Part shown: piece by piece, positions 4,373 through 58,866 of the stretch
Position numbering within the stretch: the first letter of the stretch is position 1
Layout of the letters: each line of letters starts with the position of its first letter
Assembly: GCA_022340775.1 (NCBI GenBank)
Contig: JAJDNH010000087.1
Coordinates: forward strand, 23,440 to 87,439
Direction: 5' to 3'
Length of the DNA: 64,000 nucleotides
DNA from: Acidobacteriota bacterium
GTDB taxonomy: Bacteria > Acidobacteriota > Thermoanaerobaculia > Thermoanaerobaculales > Sulfomarinibacteraceae
Position numbers and translations under genes: made by a program
Notes under the pieces: model-generated
What the model was told of the DNA's origin: nothing
Database searches by the model: none
The model's input: the letters and a program-made list of their open reading frames with translations, nothing else

Positions 4373-5059
4373 ATGCCGGACACCACCATCGTGCTGGTCG
4401 AAGACGACGAGGATCTTGCCGCCTCGCTGAGCCTGGCCTTGGGGCGCGAGGGGTACGCGTTGCGGCACTTCGGGAACGGCACCAGCGGGCTCGCCGGCAT
4501 CCTCGACGAGCCGCCGGACCTGGTATTGCTGGACCTCAACCTGCCCGACATCGACGGCCTCGCGCTGTGCCGCGAGCTCAGGACGACACCGGCCGTCCGC
4601 GACCTCCCGATCATTATGCTGACCGCACGCGCCGAGGAGCGTGACCGGGTCACCGGGCTCGACCTCGGCGCCGACGACTACGTCACCAAGCCATTCTCGC
4701 TGCGCGAGCTGAAGAGCCGGATCAGGGCCCAGCTGCGGCGCCGCACCCTCGACCAGGGCGTGCCCGAGAACGCCTACAGCGACCAGCGGCTCACGGTGCG
4801 CCGCGACGCGATGGACGTCCAGCTGGACGGCCGTCCGGTGCGGCTGACCGCGCGCGAGCTCGATCTGCTGTGGTTTCTGATCACCAACCGACCGCGGGTA
4901 GTGACCCGCGAACACATCCTGGAGCGCGTGTGGGGGTTGTCCACCGACATCGAGACTCGGACGGTGGACGTCCACGTCCGCGCTCTGCGCCGCAAGCTGG
5001 GGGCCGAGTGCATCGAGACCCTGATCGGCGCCGGCTACCGCTTCCGAGGGTACGAATGA
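4373..5059 (+). CDS. phoB: OmpR/PhoB-family response regulator (likely phosphate regulon)
   Basis: 228 aa. Receiver domain with ...DLVLLDLNLPDIDGL...ADDYVTKPF. Winged-helix output domain with LTARELDLLWFL...VDVHVRALRRKL...GAGYRF. It sits between phoU and the kinase, with an ATGA overlap onto the kinase gene. Confidence 0.7.
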   Translation: MPDTTIVLVEDDEDLAASLSLALGREGYALRHFGNGTSGLAGILDEPPDLVLLDLNLPDIDGLALCRELRTTPAVRDLPIIMLTARAEERDRVTGLDLGADDYVTKPFSLRELKSRIRAQLRRRTLDQGVPENAYSDQRLTVRRDAMDVQLDGRPVRLTARELDLLWFLITNRPRVVTREHILERVWGLSTDIETRTVDVHVRALRRKLGAECIETLIGAGYRFRGYE

Positions 5060-6342
5060 GTGCGCTGCGCCACCTCGTGATCGTGGTCGCCTCGTCGCTG
5101 CCCCTGCTGATCGCGGTCGTCCTCGCTACCGCGCACGCGGGGATGGGTGCCGTCATCGCCGGCTTCCTGGTCTGGCTCCTCGGAGTCACGGTGCTCAGCG
5201 CCACGGTCTGGCGCGAGACGGTGCGGCCGCTGAGTGACCTGCTCGACGCCCTCGGCACCCGTACCGGCCACCTGGCCCGGTGGCAGCTGCGCCTGCTGCA
5301 GGACGAGGCGGCCACGTGCCGCGAAGAGCGGGGCGCAATGGCCGACCTGATCGAGGATCTTTCCGCCGGCCTCGGTGACGGCCTGGTGGTCGTCGACACC
5401 GACCTCAAGGTGCGCCTGATCAACCAGGTGGCGCTCCGCTTCTGCGGCTGGGAAGAGGTCCGTACGGGTGCCCAGCTGGTCGAGGTGCTGCGCGACCCCG
5501 AGGCGCTGGCTGTGGTCCACTCCGCCGCAGCCGGCCGGCAACCGCAGCCGGTCGTGATCGAGAACCCGCGCGGGGTGTGGGAAGTACGGGCCTTCCCGGT
5601 GCGCCGCGGGGGCGCCGTGGTTCTGCTGACCGAGGTCTCGTCGGCGCGGCGTGCGGCCGAGCTCCGTCGCCGCTTCGTACAGGACCTCTCGCACGAGCTC
5701 CGTTCGCCGCTGGCTGTGCTGAGGACCACGGTCGAGGCGCTGGCCGAAGAGGTTGACCCTGCAAGCGCCGACCTGCTCGTCCGTCAGGTGGAGCGGATCA
5801 CGCTGCTGTCCGAAGAGCTCCATGAGCTCGCCGTCATCGAGGCCGGTGAGCTGCAGCTGCAGGTGGAAGAGGTCGACGTCAGTGGGCTGGTCAACGCCGT
5901 GATCAAGGACTTCCGCAGCCTCGCCGACCGCGGCGGGGTGCGGGTGGAGGTCCTGATCCCCGCCGACCTGAAGGTGAGGAGCGACCGGAGGGCGCTGTCC
6001 AGGGTGCTCGGCAACCTGATCGACAACGCCATCAAGTACAACCGAGAGGGTGGCTGGGTCCGCGTGCGGGCGTCGCGCGCCGATCACGCCGTTACCCTTG
6101 AAGTTGCCGACAGCGGCCAGGGAATCCCTCCGGATGAGCTGTCGGCGGTCACCCAGCGCTTCTATCGGGTCGACCGCGGCCGCACGCCCGGCAGCGGCGG
6201 CCTCGGCCTCGGCCTGGCTATCGTCAAGCACCTGGTACAGCGGCTGGGCGGCAAGATCGAGCTCGACTCACGGGTCGACGTCGGCACCACCGTGCGGATG
6301 GTGCTGCCCACGCTCCCGCCCGGTGACGGAGTGACGGAGTGA
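5056..6342 (+). CDS. phoR: Sensor histidine kinase, PhoR-like
   Basis: Start trimmed to ATG 5056, which overlaps the regulator stop. Two N-terminal TM helices are followed by a PAS-like segment. H-box FVQDLSHELRSPLAVL. N/G boxes NLIDNAIKYN and DSGQGIP...GGLGLGLAIVK. Confidence 0.65.
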   Translation: MSALRHLVIVVASSLPLLIAVVLATAHAGMGAVIAGFLVWLLGVTVLSATVWRETVRPLSDLLDALGTRTGHLARWQLRLLQDEAATCREERGAMADLIEDLSAGLGDGLVVVDTDLKVRLINQVALRFCGWEEVRTGAQLVEVLRDPEALAVVHSAAAGRQPQPVVIENPRGVWEVRAFPVRRGGAVVLLTEVSSARRAAELRRRFVQDLSHELRSPLAVLRTTVEALAEEVDPASADLLVRQVERITLLSEELHELAVIEAGELQLQVEEVDVSGLVNAVIKDFRSLADRGGVRVEVLIPADLKVRSDRRALSRVLGNLIDNAIKYNREGGWVRVRASRADHAVTLEVADSGQGIPPDELSAVTQRFYRVDRGRTPGSGGLGLGLAIVKHLVQRLGGKIELDSRVDVGTTVRMVLPTLPPGDGVTE

Positions 6343-6399
6343 GGGAGACCCCTACGCACCCAAGGAACACGAACGGTGAGTGCTCCGGAGAGGCTTTCC

Positions 6400-7332: not shown

Positions 7333-8087
7333 GACTCCAGGCGGCGGACCACGCCGGCAATGCGATCCTGCGTGTCCTCCTCAAGCCAGCACTCGATGAA
7401 GGTGTCGACTCCTGCCGCCGCATCGCGCCGCGCCGCTTCCCACGACTCTCCGAACAGGGACCGCTTGGCCTCGGCATAGGCGCGAGCCGACTTCAGCTGC
7501 AGGGAGTAGAGCTCGCGCTCCGCCTCGTCCTCCACCGGGCGATCCACAGCTACTCCCTGAATCACTCCCAGCTGGGCAGCCTTCTGCACCCTGAAGCCGT
7601 CGCCTTGCAGGATCAGCTCCGCAGCCGCCGCCCCGAGGCGTGCCGTCAGCATCCGTACGCACCCGGCCGGCACCGGCACCCCGAGATTGATCTCCGAGAG
7701 GCCGATGCGAGCCCGTCCCGCCGCCATGATGCGGACATCGCAGGCCATGGCCAGCAAGCAGCCGCCGGCGATGGCATGGCCGCCGACCGCGGCCGCGGTC
7801 GGTCCCGGGTAGGAGAAAAGATCGAGGATCAAGGATTCGAACAGCTCCAGAAAAGCACCCACCTCGTCGCGCCCGGCCCCGTACAGGCGCTTGAGGTCCC
7901 ACCCGGGCGAGAAGATCGTCGGGTGGGCGGACGCCAGCAGCAGCGGCGGCGCACCGCCCTCGCGCTGATCAGCGACCGCCGAGCAGAGGGCCTCCATCAG
8001 TGGCTCGTTGATAGCGTTCGCTCCGCGCTGCATGGTCAACCTGGTGATCCCCTTGGACGTCGTGACCTCGAGCAGCTCCTCGCTCAT
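7329..8087 (-). CDS. Enoyl-CoA hydratase/isomerase (crotonase) family protein
   Basis: 252 aa. Crotonase signature ...AAVGGHAIAGGCLLAMACDVRIMA... Its ATG overlaps the pdxT stop (ATGA). Confidence 0.8.
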   Translation of the reverse strand: MSEELLEVTTSKGITRLTMQRGANAINEPLMEALCSAVADQREGGAPPLLLASAHPTIFSPGWDLKRLYGAGRDEVGAFLELFESLILDLFSYPGPTAAAVGGHAIAGGCLLAMACDVRIMAAGRARIGLSEINLGVPVPAGCVRMLTARLGAAAAELILQGDGFRVQKAAQLGVIQGVAVDRPVEDEAERELYSLQLKSARAYAEAKRSLFGESWEAARRDAAAGVDTFIECWLEEDTQDRIAGVVRRLES

Positions 8088-43611: not shown

Positions 43612-43619
43612 ACCTCGTG

Positions 43620-43645
43620 AGACTCACGGCGGCGGCAGAAGTTCC
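43620..43645 (-). promoter_or_regulatory. ECF-type promoter candidate (GGAAC-N17-GTCT)
   Basis: The minus strand reads aatGGAACttctgccgccgccgtgaGTCTcacgaggtg, immediately upstream of the sigma gene start. This resembles GGAAC...CGTCT-type autoregulated ECF promoters. The very short distance to GTG 43611 would imply a near-leaderless mRNA or use of the downstream start. Confidence 0.4.
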
Positions 43646-43868
43646 ATTGCCGGCCGAGAGGCCTCCAGAGGGTCGCTCGTGGCGGGCTAGCCCGCGTCAG
43701 TCATGAGCGGTCGTAGCGAGACCGGCGAGACGCTTGTCAACGTTGGGATCTGAGCGTCGAGGTGCCGCAGGCATACTCGGAGGGTATGTTGAGGACACCG
43801 AGACGCGAAGAGCACAGCGATGGCTGGCGTATCGTCGGTCGCAGTAGATCGCGAGTGATTGACGCGGG

Positions 43869-44261
43869 CTAAACCAGCTCGTCGACGAGCTCGCGGACTC
43901 GGCCCTCGATCATGCGGGCGATGGCGAGGTAGGTCTCGTCGTCCTCGCCAAACGGGTCGGAGATACTCCACACCCGGCTACCGGCCGCCAGGTTGAGCGG
44001 TAGCCAGCGCAGCCCTTCGCGGCCGATCAAGCTCACTACCAGGTCGACCTCTTCAAGAGGCACCTCGCCGAGCCCCTTGGACCTGAGCTCCCGATGGCTG
44101 TAGCCCAGGGTGGTCAGCGCGCGGCGCGTTCCGCTCGCGATGCGGCCGGTGGGAGAGATGCCGGCGGACAATGCCTCGAGCCGCCCGCCGCTCAGACTGC
44201 GGGCCATCGCTTCGGCCATCGGCGAGCGGCACGTGTTGCCGACGCAGATGAAGAGCACCAT
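43869..44261 (-). CDS. Low-molecular-weight protein-tyrosine phosphatase
   Basis: Start trimmed to ATG 44261. P-loop MVLFICVGNTCRSPMAEA and general-acid DP motif (SISDPFG). It lacks the extra Cys pair of Staphylococcus-type ArsC, so a phosphatase call is preferred over arsenate reductase. Confidence 0.8.
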   Translation of the reverse strand: MVLFICVGNTCRSPMAEAMARSLSGGRLEALSAGISPTGRIASGTRRALTTLGYSHRELRSKGLGEVPLEEVDLVVSLIGREGLRWLPLNLAAGSRVWSISDPFGEDDETYLAIARMIEGRVRELVDELV

Positions 44262-54433: not shown

Positions 54434-55552
54434 ATGAAAGACTCTCGGACACAAGCTGGTTGTAGGCAAAGGAGTAGGTTGCGAGTGGACGTTCAGGAGA
54501 CCCTGCAGAAAGCCGTCGACGGGAATCGGCTGGAGCGGGGCGAGGTACAGGCGCTCTTCGAGGATGCACCCCTGCTCGACCTGGGGCAAGCCGCCGACCT
54601 CGTCCGCGGGCGCCACACGAACCCCACCGAAGGCACCTATATCATCGATCGCAACATCAACTACACCAACGTCTGCGTCTACCGGTGCCGCTTCTGCGCG
54701 TTCTACCGCACGCCCAAGGACGGCGATGCGTACGTTCTCCCGTTCGAGGAGCTTGCGGAAAAGGTGGCGGAGACGGTGGCTGCCGGTGGGACCGGAATCC
54801 TCCTCCAGGGCGGCGTCCACCCGGCGCTGCGTCTCTCCTACTACGAAGACCTGTTGCGGCGTCTCAAGACCACGTTCCCGCAAATCCACCTCCATGCGTT
54901 TTCCGCTCCAGAGGTGTGGTACGTGGCCAAGCTCGAGAGAATGCCGGTACGCGAGGTGATTCGGCGCCTGATGGAGGCCGGCCTAGACTCGATCCCCGGC
55001 GGCGGTGCGGAGATTCTCGAGGACGAGACGCGTCGGCGCATCTGGTCACGTGCCAAGGCTTCAACCGCGCAGTGGCTGAACGTCCACCGGGAGGCCCACA
55101 GGCTCGGTTTGCGCACCACGGCCACGATGATGTTCGGGGTTGGCGAGCCATACACCGCAAGGGTCGACCACCTGACGGCGATCCGCGAGCTGCAGGACGA
55201 GACCGGCGGTTTCACAGCCTTCATCCCCTGGACCTTCCAGGAAGAGAACACGGACCTCGAGGGAGAGGTCGCAACCGCGGGCGGCTATGAGTACCTGCGG
55301 ACGCTCGCGATCTCCCGCTTGGCGCTCGACAACATCCAGCACGTCCAGGGCTCATGGGTGACGCAGGGCCCGAAAATCGGCCAGGTGTCCCTGTTCTTCG
55401 GGGCCGACGACCTCGGTTCGATCATGCTCGAGGAGAACGTCGTCGCCGCGGCGGGTGCGCAGCACCGGATGACGCAGGCGGACATGGAACGTGTGATCTC
55501 CGAGGCCGGCCGCCGGCCCCGCCAGCGCCGCAGCCTCCACGACCCACTCTAG
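54434..55552 (+). CDS. Radical SAM menaquinone (futalosine pathway) enzyme, MqnC/MqnE (CofH-like) family
   Basis: [23 protein letters not shown] (CxxxCxxC radical SAM cluster)...[13 protein letters not shown]...[10 protein letters not shown]...FIPWTF. I cannot tell MqnC from MqnE by eye. Start is uncertain: ATG 54434, with TTG/GTG alternatives about 50 nt downstream. Confidence 0.75.
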
Positions 55553-56296
55553 AGCCCGGCCCGGGAAGACGGGAAACGGGCAACGGAAAACGCTCCCCCT
55601 CCCACCCGGAGAACGGGGCCGAAGCGCGCTCCAGAGAATCTGGCGCTCAAACGGGCGTGCCGGGCGCGGCATCTCCCCTGCAGCGCGACCGGCAGCCGAG
55701 CTCGGGGGGAGGGGAATGCCGACGCCGGGCTCCCACGGCCCTTGGCGCTGGAGGCATCGGCCTCACGATTGGATGAGGCGGCCCGAGCGGCTTCCGGCGG
55801 GAGCCTCGAGGCTACCGATCCGTTCTCGTGGCCTTGCGACCGCCGGAGACGCGAGGCGTGCGGCCACCCGGTGACCGCACGGCCGCCGGAGCCGCGGAGA
55901 AGGACCCTCCGGTGCGCTCGGCGGGAAGGTCCCGCGGGCCGTCAGAAGGAACGTCCTCCGAGGCAATGTTGGGGAGTCTCTTCTGTACCTCCGGCGCCCG
56001 GACGACTGCTTCGCAGACGTCCGTCGCCACCTGCCTCGAAGCGGGCAACGGGCTCGGCCTCTGAACCGACTTCGATGCCCGCTCCGGGCAGGCGGCGAGG
56101 CGCCTTCCTCGAAGCTGTAACCAGACAGGCGAGCGCTCCTCCCGCGCATTGCCAAGCTCGAGGTTTCCAGCCAACGTGCCGGTGCGGAAACGGTCCTTCA
56201 GGAAACCTCGAAGCATGGCACGTGCCACCGAACGCACCCTGTCGGAGACGCGAGACGTGCAGTTGCCTTGGGCCGCGTGCCGGTGGGGAATGCGGG

Positions 56297-57787
56297 CTAA
56301 GAGAGGATTTCGTACTGCTCGAGGTGGAAGGTGGGGTTCTCCCTGAGCACGACCTCGAAGCGGTGGACCTCCTCCATCTCTCGCAACACCTCGCGGAACG
56401 GCCCCTGCAGGTAGTGCGAGATCTCGGGGTGTACGACCAGGGAAAGCTGCGCCGCCCGCTCCCGCTCGGCGGTCGTCAGCAGCTCCCTCCGGATCTCGAG
56501 ACACACGGTCGCCAGCGATTTGATGCGGCCGGACCCGTGGCAGTAAGGACACTCCTGGCTGAGCATGACGTCGAGGCTGGGACGGCTTTTCTTACGCGTC
56601 AGCTGGACAAGGCCGATATCGCTCATCGGCAGCAGTTGGCTGCGGGCGCGGTCAGTCTGAAGCTCGGCCGCCAGGGCCTCGTACACCTGGAGACGGTGGG
56701 CAGCGTCCTCCATGTCGATAAAGTCGATGACGATGATGCCACCAAGATCGCGCAGCCGAAGCTGACGCACGATCTCGCGCACCGCCTCGATGTTGATGCG
56801 GAAAACCGTGTCCTCGAGGGAAGTGCTGCCGACGTACTTGCCGGTATTGACGTCGATCGCGACCAGTGCCTCCGTCTGGTTCACGACCAGGTAGCCGCCG
56901 GACTTCAGCCATACCTTGGGGCGCAAGGCCTTGTCGAGCTCACGGTCAATGGCGAACGCCGCCATCAGGTCGCCGGGCCGACGGAAAAGCTTCACGCGTT
57001 GTACCAGTGCCGCGTCGCGTTGATCGAGAAGCTCGACGGCCTCGCGGTAGGCATCGACATCATCGACCCAGCACTCGCGGACGGACTCGGTCAACATGTC
57101 GCGAACCGAGCGCAGCGCAGGGCTCAACTCCCTGTGAACCAGGACCGGGGATGGGCTGCCTTCGGTCACCCTCTGCACTCGGTCCCAGAGCTGCCGCAAC
57201 ACCCAGCGATCAGCCTCCAGCTCGGCCGCCCCCTGGCCCTCTCCGGCGGTACGGACAATCCACCCGCCTGGGTCATCGAACTCTTCGATGATCTCCCTCA
57301 GCCGCGCCCTCTCGTCGGCGTCGGTGATGCGCCGCGACACGCCGCGCTGCACGATCGTCGGCAGGTAGACCAGGAAGCGTCCGGGCAGGCTGATGTAGCT
57401 GGTGAGGCGTGGGCCCTTGGTGCCAAGGCCGTCGCGAACCACTTGGACCAAGACCTCCTGCCCCTCACGCAACAGCTCATCGATCGTTGCATCGTTGGCG
57501 GGCGGGGCGAGCTCCTCCCCGGCTTCGTCGAGGAACAGATCGGAGTAGTCGTCAACCACCGCGCCGGCCTCGCGGACATAGAGAAAGCCATCGCGCCCCA
57601 CGCCGACATCGACAAACGCCGCCTGCATGCCGGGGAGCACCCGGGTGACCGTTCCCCGGTAGAGGTTGCCGACCAGCGAAGAGGCGCGGTGACGCTCGGT
57701 CCGGTAGGTCACCAGGCGTCCGTTCTCACGCAGCGCAACCCGGGTTTCGAACGGGTTGACGGACAGGTACATTGAGGCCTCGGTCAT
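56297..57787 (-). CDS. rng: Ribonuclease G / E-family endoribonuclease (Rng/CafA-like)
   Basis: Start trimmed to ATG 57787, an ATGA overlap with the rodA stop. S1 domain VGNLYRGTVTRVLPGMQAAFVDVGVGRDGFLYV. ...GGIIVIDFIDM (catalytic core). About 496 aa, the RNase G size. It is the last gene of the mre operon, as in E. coli mreBCD-yhdE-rng. The 847-aa ORF-track entry is an artefactual upstream extension. Confidence 0.88.
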   Translation of the reverse strand: MTEASMYLSVNPFETRVALRENGRLVTYRTERHRASSLVGNLYRGTVTRVLPGMQAAFVDVGVGRDGFLYVREAGAVVDDYSDLFLDEAGEELAPPANDATIDELLREGQEVLVQVVRDGLGTKGPRLTSYISLPGRFLVYLPTIVQRGVSRRITDADERARLREIIEEFDDPGGWIVRTAGEGQGAAELEADRWVLRQLWDRVQRVTEGSPSPVLVHRELSPALRSVRDMLTESVRECWVDDVDAYREAVELLDQRDAALVQRVKLFRRPGDLMAAFAIDRELDKALRPKVWLKSGGYLVVNQTEALVAIDVNTGKYVGSTSLEDTVFRINIEAVREIVRQLRLRDLGGIIVIDFIDMEDAAHRLQVYEALAAELQTDRARSQLLPMSDIGLVQLTRKKSRPSLDVMLSQECPYCHGSGRIKSLATVCLEIRRELLTTAERERAAQLSLVVHPEISHYLQGPFREVLREMEEVHRFEVVLRENPTFHLEQYEILS

Positions 57788-58866
57788 GCATTCACCAGCC
57801 GGTGGCGCCAGACTGAGACCACCATCCCAAGCGCCATGCAGGTTGTCAGCAGGGAAGACCCCCCATAGCTCATGAGGGGCAGGGTAATGCCGGTGGTCGG
57901 CAGCCAGCCGACAACCATTCCGAGGTTGACCACGATTTGGAAGCCGAGCCAGGAGACGATCAGCGTGGCCAAAACGACGCCGAACCGTTCCCCCGCCTCC
58001 GCGGCCGTGGCGCCCACCCGCCACAGGAGAAGGCCGTACGCAAGGAGCAGTGCCGTGGTGCCGAGGAACCCCGTTCCCTCTGCCCAGGCGGCGAAGACGA
58101 AGTCGGTGTGCTGCGCGGGCAGGAAGCGGAGCGCCGACTGGCTTCCCCTCCCGAGCCCTTGCCCGAGTAGGCGCCCCGAGCCAATGGCGATCTTCGACTG
58201 CCTGACCTGATAGCCGGACCCATAAGGGTCGCGCTCCGGCTGAACGATGGTCAGGATGCGGTCCTTCTGGTAAGGCTTCAGACCCCACATCCACGTCGCC
58301 CCGGCCCCGAGAACAGCAACCAGGCCGAGTACGACCCACACCTGTGGCCGAAGGCCTCCGATCCACAGGGCTGCTCCGATGAGTGGAAGGTAGGTGAGCG
58401 CCACCCCGAGGTCCGGCTCCAACAGGATCAGGACGACGGGAGCGCCGACGATTGCTACCAGCACGGGAAGATCCAGCAGCTGGAGTCGGTTGCGGCCGCT
58501 GCGAGCGAACCACGCAGCGAGCATCAGCGCCGTGCCGAGACGCGCGACCTCGCTTGGCTGGAACGAGACCGGACCGAACGAGAACCACCCGCGGGTCCCG
58601 CTCCGCGTCTGACCGATAAGCAGAACTGCGGCCAGCAGCAGCAGTGACAGCGCATAAGCCATCGGTGCGAAGCGCTGCAGAGCCGAGGCCCGGAGCTGGC
58701 CAACCAGCCACAGGGCCGCCAACCCGGCCCCACCCCAGATCGTCTGTCTCAGCAGGAGCCTGTGACCGACGATCGGATCGACAGCTCCGAGGACCGACAG
58801 CGACGCACCGAGTATGGCGAGAACGGCCAGCAGCAGCCATGGGTCGATGCGGTGCTCCACGGCCAT
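57784..58866 (-). CDS. rodA: Rod shape-determining protein RodA (SEDS family)
   Basis: Start trimmed to ATG 58866 (MAVEHRIDPWLLLAVLAILGASL). About 10 TM helices. ...KIAIGSGRLLGQGLGRGSQ...LPAQHTDFVFA...GITLPLMSYGGSS. Confidence 0.92.
   Translation of the reverse strand: MAVEHRIDPWLLLAVLAILGASLSVLGAVDPIVGHRLLLRQTIWGGAGLAALWLVGQLRASALQRFAPMAYALSLLLLAAVLLIGQTRSGTRGWFSFGPVSFQPSEVARLGTALMLAAWFARSGRNRLQLLDLPVLVAIVGAPVVLILLEPDLGVALTYLPLIGAALWIGGLRPQVWVVLGLVAVLGAGATWMWGLKPYQKDRILTIVQPERDPYGSGYQVRQSKIAIGSGRLLGQGLGRGSQSALRFLPAQHTDFVFAAWAEGTGFLGTTALLLAYGLLLWRVGATAAEAGERFGVVLATLIVSWLGFQIVVNLGMVVGWLPTTGITLPLMSYGGSSLLTTCMALGMVVSVWRHRLVNA

Follow-up and report, generated by a model that had tools for sequence, protein, structure and literature searches.

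A probable non-coding mosaic of discrete repeat modules between convergent mqn and rng genes of an uncultured Acidobacteriota bacterium

The mqn–rng gap and its modules

The stretch of DNA analysed here (the window, 64 kb in total with a G+C content of 66%) belongs to a bacterium of the phylum Acidobacteriota and holds a 744-bp gap, at 55553–56296, between two convergent genes. The gene on the left, mqn (54434–55552, plus strand), encodes a radical-SAM CofH/MqnC-type menaquinone (futalosine pathway) enzyme with matches to Pfam Radical_SAM and CofH_C, and its TAG stop codon occupies 55550–55552. The gene on the right, rng (56297–57793, minus strand), encodes RNase G of the Rne/Rng family with matches to Pfam RNase_E_G and a thioredoxin-like domain; orthologues of mqn adjoin rng in relatives. 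An earlier note, made from the sequence alone, had described the gap as unassigned and repeat-containing and had proposed for it a structured non-coding RNA, a small novel protein or a decayed repeat element. The gap sequence does not code for protein, and each of the modules that compose it recurs at non-syntenic intergenic sites in related genomes. The gap is probably a non-coding mosaic of discrete repeat modules, comparable to REP/BIME, ERIC or BOX elements and confined to a narrow clade of uncultured Acidobacteriota.

The modules were delimited by profile searches (nhmmer) and alignments. Modules L, D1 and A, on the plus strand behind mqn, and modules D2 and B, on the minus strand behind rng, tile the gap. 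Because D2 is a divergent member of the D family, the gap can be described as two convergent units of leader plus core, one for each gene. Module L (55553–55606, plus strand) directly abuts the mqn stop and consists of a GCCCGGCCCGGG motif, a purine-rich stretch of short period (GGGAAAC-like) and then CTCCCCCTCCCACCCGG. It is followed on the same strand by D1 (55599–55732), the leader ahead of A that was recognized with the nhmmer D profile, by the A core (55722–55900), and by a tail (55901–55966) with a terminator-like hairpin and T-rich end (55956–55984, plus strand). This hairpin is placed where the two convergent units meet and is weak when taken alone, the consensus scan having given one site against 0.7 expected. 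On the minus strand, the B core (55967–56165) comprises a small hairpin and then a three-way junction with a long hairpin (56097–56025) and a short one. Its leader D2 (56150–56262, minus strand) contains the conserved hairpin TCGAGGTTTCC...GGAAACCTCGA (56211–56158). The remaining 34 nt between D2 and the rng stop (56263–56296) are a spacer that was not assigned to a strand; read on the minus strand it begins with TAGCCCGC, which resembles the termini of a further module, C, over 8–9 nt only and could do so by chance. The ends of the whole gap have in common only TAG(A)GCCCG/CGGGCTA, 7–8 nt.

Copies of the modules at other loci

Four contigs (L081–L084) were obtained from a metagenome scan seeded with the peptide of a 134-aa minus-strand open reading frame (ORF) in the gap. 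All four resemble the window at the nucleotide level, and none of them encodes mqn or rng. Window positions 55952–56257 correspond to L081 5265–4960 with 92% identity, the homology of D2 with L081 beginning at 56257/56258, and positions 55595–55901 correspond to L081 7947–7645 with 74% identity and partly to L081 5257–5433 in the opposite relative orientation. A 180-nt core (window 56153–55975) is found with 77–83% identity in L082, L083, and L084. Measured on module B, identity to the window is 92% in L081, 82–83% in L082/L083, 77% in L084, and 74% in L085, a contig of a sister species. Copies of A are present in L081 (7818–7646), L084 (5237–5415), L085 (5580–5474), and L161 (5837–5659), the last being a contig nearly identical to the window. 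The nhmmer D profile matched the window, L081 (twice), L082, L084, L085, and L161, and eight D copies were aligned. Module L shows 86–93% identity to L081 8035–7984, in another gene context, and L-type relatives are found in L082, L083, L161, and a second place in the window (6318–6350).

The copies lie in unlike surroundings. The L081 copy follows a Pyr_redox_2 dehydrogenase gene. A PALP enzyme gene faces the copy of L082/L083, and L082 alone also has an IS110-family transposase gene upstream. The L084 copy has an enoyl-CoA-hydratase-like gene on one side and an AMP-binding gene on the other. In L081 the complete composite is present, arranged as in the window but in a different gene context, and is interrupted by a 2.2-kb insertion with a 52-nt flanking duplication (5214–5265 = 7461–7512). 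Module B was found at at least six distinct loci (the window with L088 and L161; L081; L082/L083; L084; L085 with L165; and a second copy in L161), a census that is incomplete because the B-bearing contigs were found through peptide patterns. No B copy encodes a protein, and all five of the B loci with assignable flanking genes lie between convergent genes. The order and orientation of the modules vary across the window, L081, L084, L085, and L161. Since the copies are 74–92% identical between loci and their edges are still changing among strains, the modules are not decayed; the decayed repeat element of the earlier note has turned out to be a dispersed repeat but not a decayed one.

The insertion in L081 has features of its own. 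Inverted repeats of ~86 nt (5570–5655 and 7340–7425, 80% identical) surround a low-G+C cassette of two genes, one a membrane-like ORF of 155 aa and the other an ORF of 291 aa that has a clear Shine-Dalgarno sequence; neither has a Pfam or NCBIfam match. One copy of the ~86-nt repeat occurs in L161 (6819–6892). The cassette has the look of a mobile unit of its own that is nested within the mosaic.

The L-type motif was observed at gene 3' ends as CCGCCCGG, a short-period purine-rich tandem, and then (A/T)CCCC(G)CC. Such sites are present at window 6318–6350, L081 8040–8100, L082 288–325, and L083 1860–1916. One example of the tandem, (TGACGGAG)n, contains TGA in all three frames, and the stop codon of the window gene at 4870–6342 falls inside the motif.

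A simple inversion switch of the A-D segment between the 9-nt inverted repeats CGGAGAACG (55607–55615) and CGTCCTCCG (55952–55960) was considered; it fits the window against the first L081 copy and fails for L084, L085, and L161. Distant blastn searches of plasmid and phage collections gave no module match. Patterns of 16–17 nt from the core did give 43 and 24 matches in IMG/VR, which re-scoring with the profile identified as chance.

Coding potential and short repeats

The 134-aa ORF (ATG at 56216, stop at 55812, minus strand) spans modules B and A. The earlier note had considered its G+C content at third codon positions (GC3), about 75%, similar to that of real genes in the window. The measured value is indeed 0.754 (GC1/2/3 = 0.69/0.62/0.75, with 15.7% Arg), but the flanking genes have a higher GC3 (0.83–0.87) and a GC2 of 0.38–0.45 against 0.62 in the ORF, their GC1/2/3 being ~0.67/0.42/0.84. 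A small, fast-evolving, Arg-rich protein would agree with the ORF being open in the window, and over 93 codons in L081, and with a weak period-3 GC signal in its frame. Against such a protein, substitutions are spread evenly over the three codon positions in four comparisons of homologous copies (9/10/12, 28/24/25, 33/35/29, and 20/20/21). The frame is also broken in homologues, with two in-frame stops in L084, a frameshift and no ATG in L085, and loss of the 5' (start) part in L082/L083. All six frames score about equally in tblastx. In the comparison with related genomes that the note had advised, the similarity is at the nucleotide level. Pfam gave no match for the ORF or for five other candidate frames in the gap, no homologue of the ORF was found among 5.8 billion proteins, and a protein homologue search with a six-frame concatenate of the whole gap found no relative. 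The public JGI contig L088, which is identical to the window, has no gene called in the gap either. The small-protein explanation is effectively excluded, with an extremely low probability remaining to it, and the ORF is a spurious frame over the two modules.

A comparable frame was observed in the sister species, where the public annotation of L085 includes a 61-aa ORF (5473–5658, minus strand) that spans modules A and B and runs over the rng stop. Neither Pfam nor NCBIfam gave a match for it, and it is very likely a false gene call due to the repeat.

The repeats and the palindrome listed in the earlier note are, like the ORF, all present at the positions given there. Their occurrence was compared with 1000 dinucleotide-preserving shuffles of the 744 bp. 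The 18-mer pair with one mismatch (55844–55861 and 56243–56260) is significant, since a pair with at most one mismatch was reached in 0.1% of the shuffles. The 9-mer CCTCGAAGC is found at 56034, 56107, and 56206, with a fourth copy within rng at 56353, and the 10-mer CGTGCCGGTG at 56175 and 56276, but both are unconserved and marginal against chance: 3.7% of the shuffles had a 9-mer present three times and 4.5% an equal number of duplicated 10-mers. The palindrome GGCACGTGCC (56217–56226) is real but also unconserved, and about 80% of the shuffles contain a 10-nt palindrome. The 18-mer copy at 56243–56260 is the 5' end of D2, and that at 55844–55861 is an inverted D-like sub-motif within A. 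The two copies co-vary, with G in the window and A in L081. Pairing of the D2 5' end with A, in cis or in trans, was considered and rejected; as the relationship is not kept in L084 and L085, the 18-mer is treated as a shared sub-motif or a product of gene conversion.

Predicted structures

In modules B and C a defined fold is preserved by wobble and compensatory changes, which favour one of the two strands. For B, RNAalifold gave −97 kcal/mol on the minus strand against −71 kcal/mol on the plus strand. Over six distinct copies, 94.8% of cells are paired and 12 cells are compensatory. The paired fraction and the covariation score observed were equalled in none of 500 shuffles, and the number of pairs with changes on both sides in 17 of 500; in slid controls the paired fraction falls to about 40%. 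Every copy contains 7–9 G-U pairs when folded as the minus strand; the plus strand would have A-C mismatches in their place. The z-scores of the single sequence are −5.2 for the sense and −4.6 for the antisense strand. Because most pairs of B are invariant and the copies are closely related, this amounts to moderate support for the structure. The D2 hairpin carries a compensatory change, C-G to U-A, in L084. Module A folds about equally on both strands (−80 and −75 kcal/mol).

Module C was met while mapping relatives and lies outside the gap, at window 43682–43874 on the plus strand, within a segment of ~500 bp (43612–44109) that is ORF-poor like the gap. It forms an imperfect hairpin 180 nt long, with 72 pairs and with terminal inverted repeats of 15–16 nt (TAGCCCGCGTCA.../...TGACGCGGGCTA), and its termini start and end with TA. 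Among just three sequences, 10 pairs are changed on both sides, a number that none of 500 shuffles reached, and the energy is −117 kcal/mol on the plus strand against −80 kcal/mol on the other. Copies are present in L084 (4198–4388), L085 (5909–6098), and L165, with a weak match in L081 (9620–9760). The window copy lies some 240 nt upstream of the gene whose start is at 44110, in what appears to be a divergent intergenic region.

The conserved and strongly folding modules, with their strand-biased structure, thus lend support to the structured RNA that the earlier note had offered as one option. The Rfam scan advised there returned no covariance-model match at the gathering score: searches of Rfam 15 in gathering and E-value modes with the window, the gap, L081–L084, and module C gave only sub-threshold miRNA-like hairpins. 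The motif CUGAAGA...GAAAC in D2 brought a hammerhead ribozyme to mind; the order of the core does not fit, and no ribozyme model scored.

The locus in relatives and strains

The RNase G of the window is a 100% match to protein P0001, labelled 'ribonuclease G' by its source, and shares at most 72% identity with that of any species-representative genome; these genomes bear the labels Acidobacteriota, Thermoanaerobaculales, Thermoanaerobaculia, Holophagae, and Ca. Sulfomarinibacter. In public gene calls rng starts further downstream than the start first assumed here. Relatives with 66–71% identity in the RNase G protein (L002–L006) have a spacing of 13–183 bp between rng and mqn. At 72–76% identity (L001, L159, and L160) a GT2 glycosyltransferase and/or a membrane protein of 671–762 aa lies between the two genes. 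In the sister species (L085, L086, and L157), with 89% identity, the genes are separated by 618 bp tiled by A, B, D, and C. The D-B-A series is oriented like mqn there, so B is inverted relative to the window, and in L085 the TTA at the end of C doubles as the mqn stop codon. The 80 species-representative loci and the 76% relative contained no module. The rng–mqn locus has a long history of turnover.

The genes found between rng and mqn in those other relatives lie at 7372–9660 in L001, 11485–14387 in L159, and 2656–3707 in L160. The GT2 glycosyltransferase occurs in L159 and L160. The multi-pass membrane protein of 671–762 aa is encoded in L001 (in inverted orientation) and in L159, and the two proteins have 36% mutual identity.

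Between genomes whose flanking genes are 94–99.9% identical, the differences fall exactly on the edges of modules, among them a toxin-antitoxin island joined to the 3' edge of B. Contig L161 (ERZ27251509 k141_414529) is 99.94% identical to the window over 4784 nt (60772–55989), covering rng, D2, and B, and departs from it exactly at 55989/55988, right after GGGCGCCGGAG, the 3' end of the B junction. Past B, at L161 4785–7091, there is a 45-nt A-like start, then a HigB-like (sub-threshold in Pfam) and HTH_3 gene pair, and further on inverted copies of A, D, and L with 81% identity to those of the window, followed by a DUF2442 gene. The contig stops within a second D-B copy (73%), where the repeat probably broke the assembly, and mqn is not found within 2.6 kb. 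Contigs L163 and L164 follow the window with 94% identity through rng and depart from it 3 nt past the rng stop, where an IS4-family insertion sequence (IS) element (Nterm_IS4 and DDE_Tnp_1, terminal repeats CCAATACNGTT) occupies L163 2584–4031 and L164 2447–2565. Contig L165 has 97.9% identity to L085 but lacks an 83-nt A core, and the 8-nt sequence GCTCCGGC brackets the breakpoints of this indel. In L082 an IS110-family transposase gene (488–1939; DEDD_Tnp_IS110 and Transposase_20) stands directly after the D module and 180 nt upstream of the B core. L083 has the downstream 1.5 kb in common with L082 (95%), with a different upstream gene and no IS. Only L082 has an IS110 transposase, and neither such a gene nor a remnant of one was found in or near the window gap. 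The L082 gene is preceded by ~170 nt of non-coding sequence, a possible bridge-RNA region.

Weighing of the explanations

If the gap is a mosaic of intergenic repeats, its modules would be non-autonomous elements, spread and shuffled either by an enzyme acting in trans or through recombination between short motifs that they share, and an IS110-type recombinase may be one candidate for the mobilising enzyme. The modules may be co-transcribed as the 3' untranslated regions of rng and mqn, where their stable hairpins could act as 3'-end barriers that terminate convergent transcription or protect mRNA 3' ends. Convergent junctions hold no promoters to disrupt, which would explain why modules persist there. 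Several points weigh against this reading. Copy number looks low: the 64-kb window contains single copies of A, B, and C and two each of D and L-type modules, and a 21-kb stretch of the sister genome yielded no additional copy. For A, B, and D, neither clear terminal inverted repeats nor a consistent target-site duplication at the edges is seen, so rearrangement through ordinary recombination is as possible as transposition. The B copies of L083 and L085, two contigs of one metagenome, differ by ~23%; if both come from the same organism, such divergence would resemble old paralogous RNA genes more than a recently active mobile element. The covariation of B comes from six closely related sequences with mostly invariant pairs, and its wobble asymmetry is equally compatible with an RNA and with a folded single strand of DNA. 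Co-transcription and any 3'-end function are inference.

The main rival, in itself unlikely, is that B with its leader D2, and perhaps A and C, are stand-alone small RNA (sRNA) genes, paralogous trans-acting or protein-binding structured RNAs that came to lie between convergent genes by chance. The strand-specific fold conserved through wobble and compensatory changes argues for it, and the lack of an Rfam match would make B a new family. In addition, the divergent B copies of the single metagenome keep the fold, which, given one organism, would suggest selection on paralogues over recent copying. The consensus scan, however, detected no sigma-70-like promoter in 55300–56600 (scans of this type perform weakly in the phylum), and B is not followed by a clear terminator. 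Moreover, the sequence ahead of B varies, being D in most copies and unrelated in L082/L083, the sister species has B in inverted orientation at the orthologous locus, and modules are gained and lost among near-identical genomes, which would be unusual for a needed sRNA. It is quite improbable, for its part, that the modules, B especially, are attachment or target sites for mobile DNA, like tRNA/tmRNA genes or REPs, and that the mosaic is made of integration and excision scars, possibly guided by IS110 bridge RNA. The events pointing that way are the departure of L161 from the window at the exact 3' edge of B into the HigB-like/HTH pair, modules, and second D-B copy; the IS110 transposase gene directly after the D module of L082; the IS4 element 3 nt past the rng stop; and the 2.2-kb insertion inside the L081 composite. 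IS110-family elements are also known to target REPs (PMC1525189; PMC12288879). Each event is nevertheless a single example, no integrase lies beside the L161 island, whose far junction is missing because the contig ends, the IS4 insertion is not within a module, and the window gap has no IS110 transposase remnant. A related and doubtful proposal holds that B and C represent structured RNA families not described before, and that recombination or integration takes place site-specifically at their edges. Accessory DNA (the toxin-antitoxin island, IS elements, and modules) would then have been joined precisely at the 3' boundary of the B fold, as in islands at tRNA/tmRNA genes, or as with IS110 bridge-RNA recombinases that target REPs and carry hitch-hiking RNA modules. 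If that were true, the mosaic would be an RNA-gene-like landing pad driving strain-level genome plasticity in an uncultured acidobacterial lineage.

The two last explanations, a pseudogene and noise, are effectively excluded. That the gap is a decayed remnant of genes formerly between rng and mqn might be suggested by L001, L159, and L160, with their GT2 and/or membrane-protein genes at this place. It is very improbable, as tblastn of these proteins against the gaps of the window and the sister species gave only chance-level matches (E above 0.1), and the gap sequence is instead common to non-syntenic loci. GC-rich compositional noise, with repeats arising by chance in an ordinary spacer, would suit the palindrome and the 9-mer and 10-mer repeats, all at or near chance frequency. 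The earlier note had tied this scenario to a lack of conservation in relatives, and the clear nucleotide conservation found rules it out; with 74–92% identity to non-syntenic loci, a conserved fold, and an 18-mer pair seen in ~1/1000 shuffles, the probability of noise is negligible.

Significance

The unassigned gap has resolved into modules of four or five non-coding families (L, D, A, and B, with C elsewhere in the window) that are absent from Rfam and from the phage and plasmid collections searched. Two tempting false gene calls, the 134-aa ORF and the 61-aa ORF of the sister genome, are removed. Since the modules coincide with assembly breaks and strain-level insertions, they are practical markers of plasticity hotspots in metagenome-assembled genomes of the clade. 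Intergenic mosaic repeats are well known from proteobacteria and firmicutes, and a limited literature search found no description of such repeats for Acidobacteriota. Should the structured modules turn out to be RNA genes or targets of recombination, the spread of such repeats could be studied in a new system.

Comparison with known repeat systems

The REP/BIME elements of enterobacteria and pseudomonads are, like the gap modules, extragenic, G+C-rich, and hairpin-forming, and they also build mosaics in alternating orientation. Repeats of this kind are often co-transcribed at gene 3' ends and influence mRNA stability, and REP and SPRITE are biased toward convergent genes (PMC3184786). The likeness extends to that enrichment between convergent genes, to 3'-end co-transcription with effects on mRNA stability, which for the modules would follow only if they are transcribed, and to recombination and insertion of IS110 elements, which target REPs (PMC3184786; PMC1525189; PMC12288879). 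On the other hand, a REP unit is a simple palindrome of 20–40 nt present in hundreds of copies, whereas the modules are 55–190 nt long, fold into a three-way junction or a 180-nt hairpin, and were observed at low density; the two have no sequence similarity. The BOX elements of Streptococcus pneumoniae (boxA-boxB-boxC) and RUP/SPRITE likewise have modular sub-elements, stable predicted RNA structures, and spurious small ORFs running across them, and BOX elements are transcribed (PMC3184786), as the modules here may be. BOX belongs to another phylum, has no sequence similarity to the modules, and follows a fixed A-Bn-C grammar, in contrast to the variable order and orientation seen here.

A further parallel is offered by ISPpu9 of Pseudomonas putida, an IS110-family element that inserts in REPs and carries a hitch-hiking sRNA module, ssr9, also found as stand-alone copies (PMC12288879). 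There, as in L082, an IS110 transposase gene lies in an intergenic repeat with a structured RNA-like module downstream, the B core of L082 being that module; the likeness is one of arrangement. Only one B-bearing locus (L082) has the transposase, and L083 has the same B locus without it. ERIC-type elements occur in transcribed intergenic DNA and can alter mRNA decay (PMC3184786). With ERIC/IRU, the 127-bp imperfect palindromes of Enterobacteriaceae, and with Correia-type MITE-like hairpins, module C shares a single long imperfect hairpin and terminal inverted repeats starting with TA; A, B, and D differ in having no terminal inverted repeats, and C itself is strongly strand-asymmetric in its folding energy. 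Miniature inverted-repeat transposable elements, or MITEs, are approached in that the modules are dispersed copies without a transposase of their own, while terminal inverted repeats are present in C and not in A, B, or D. The Rhizobium-specific intergenic mosaic elements (RIMEs), intergenic mosaics of large palindromes on the ~100-nt scale, are lineage-restricted as well, in a lineage and with a sequence unrelated to those of the modules described here.

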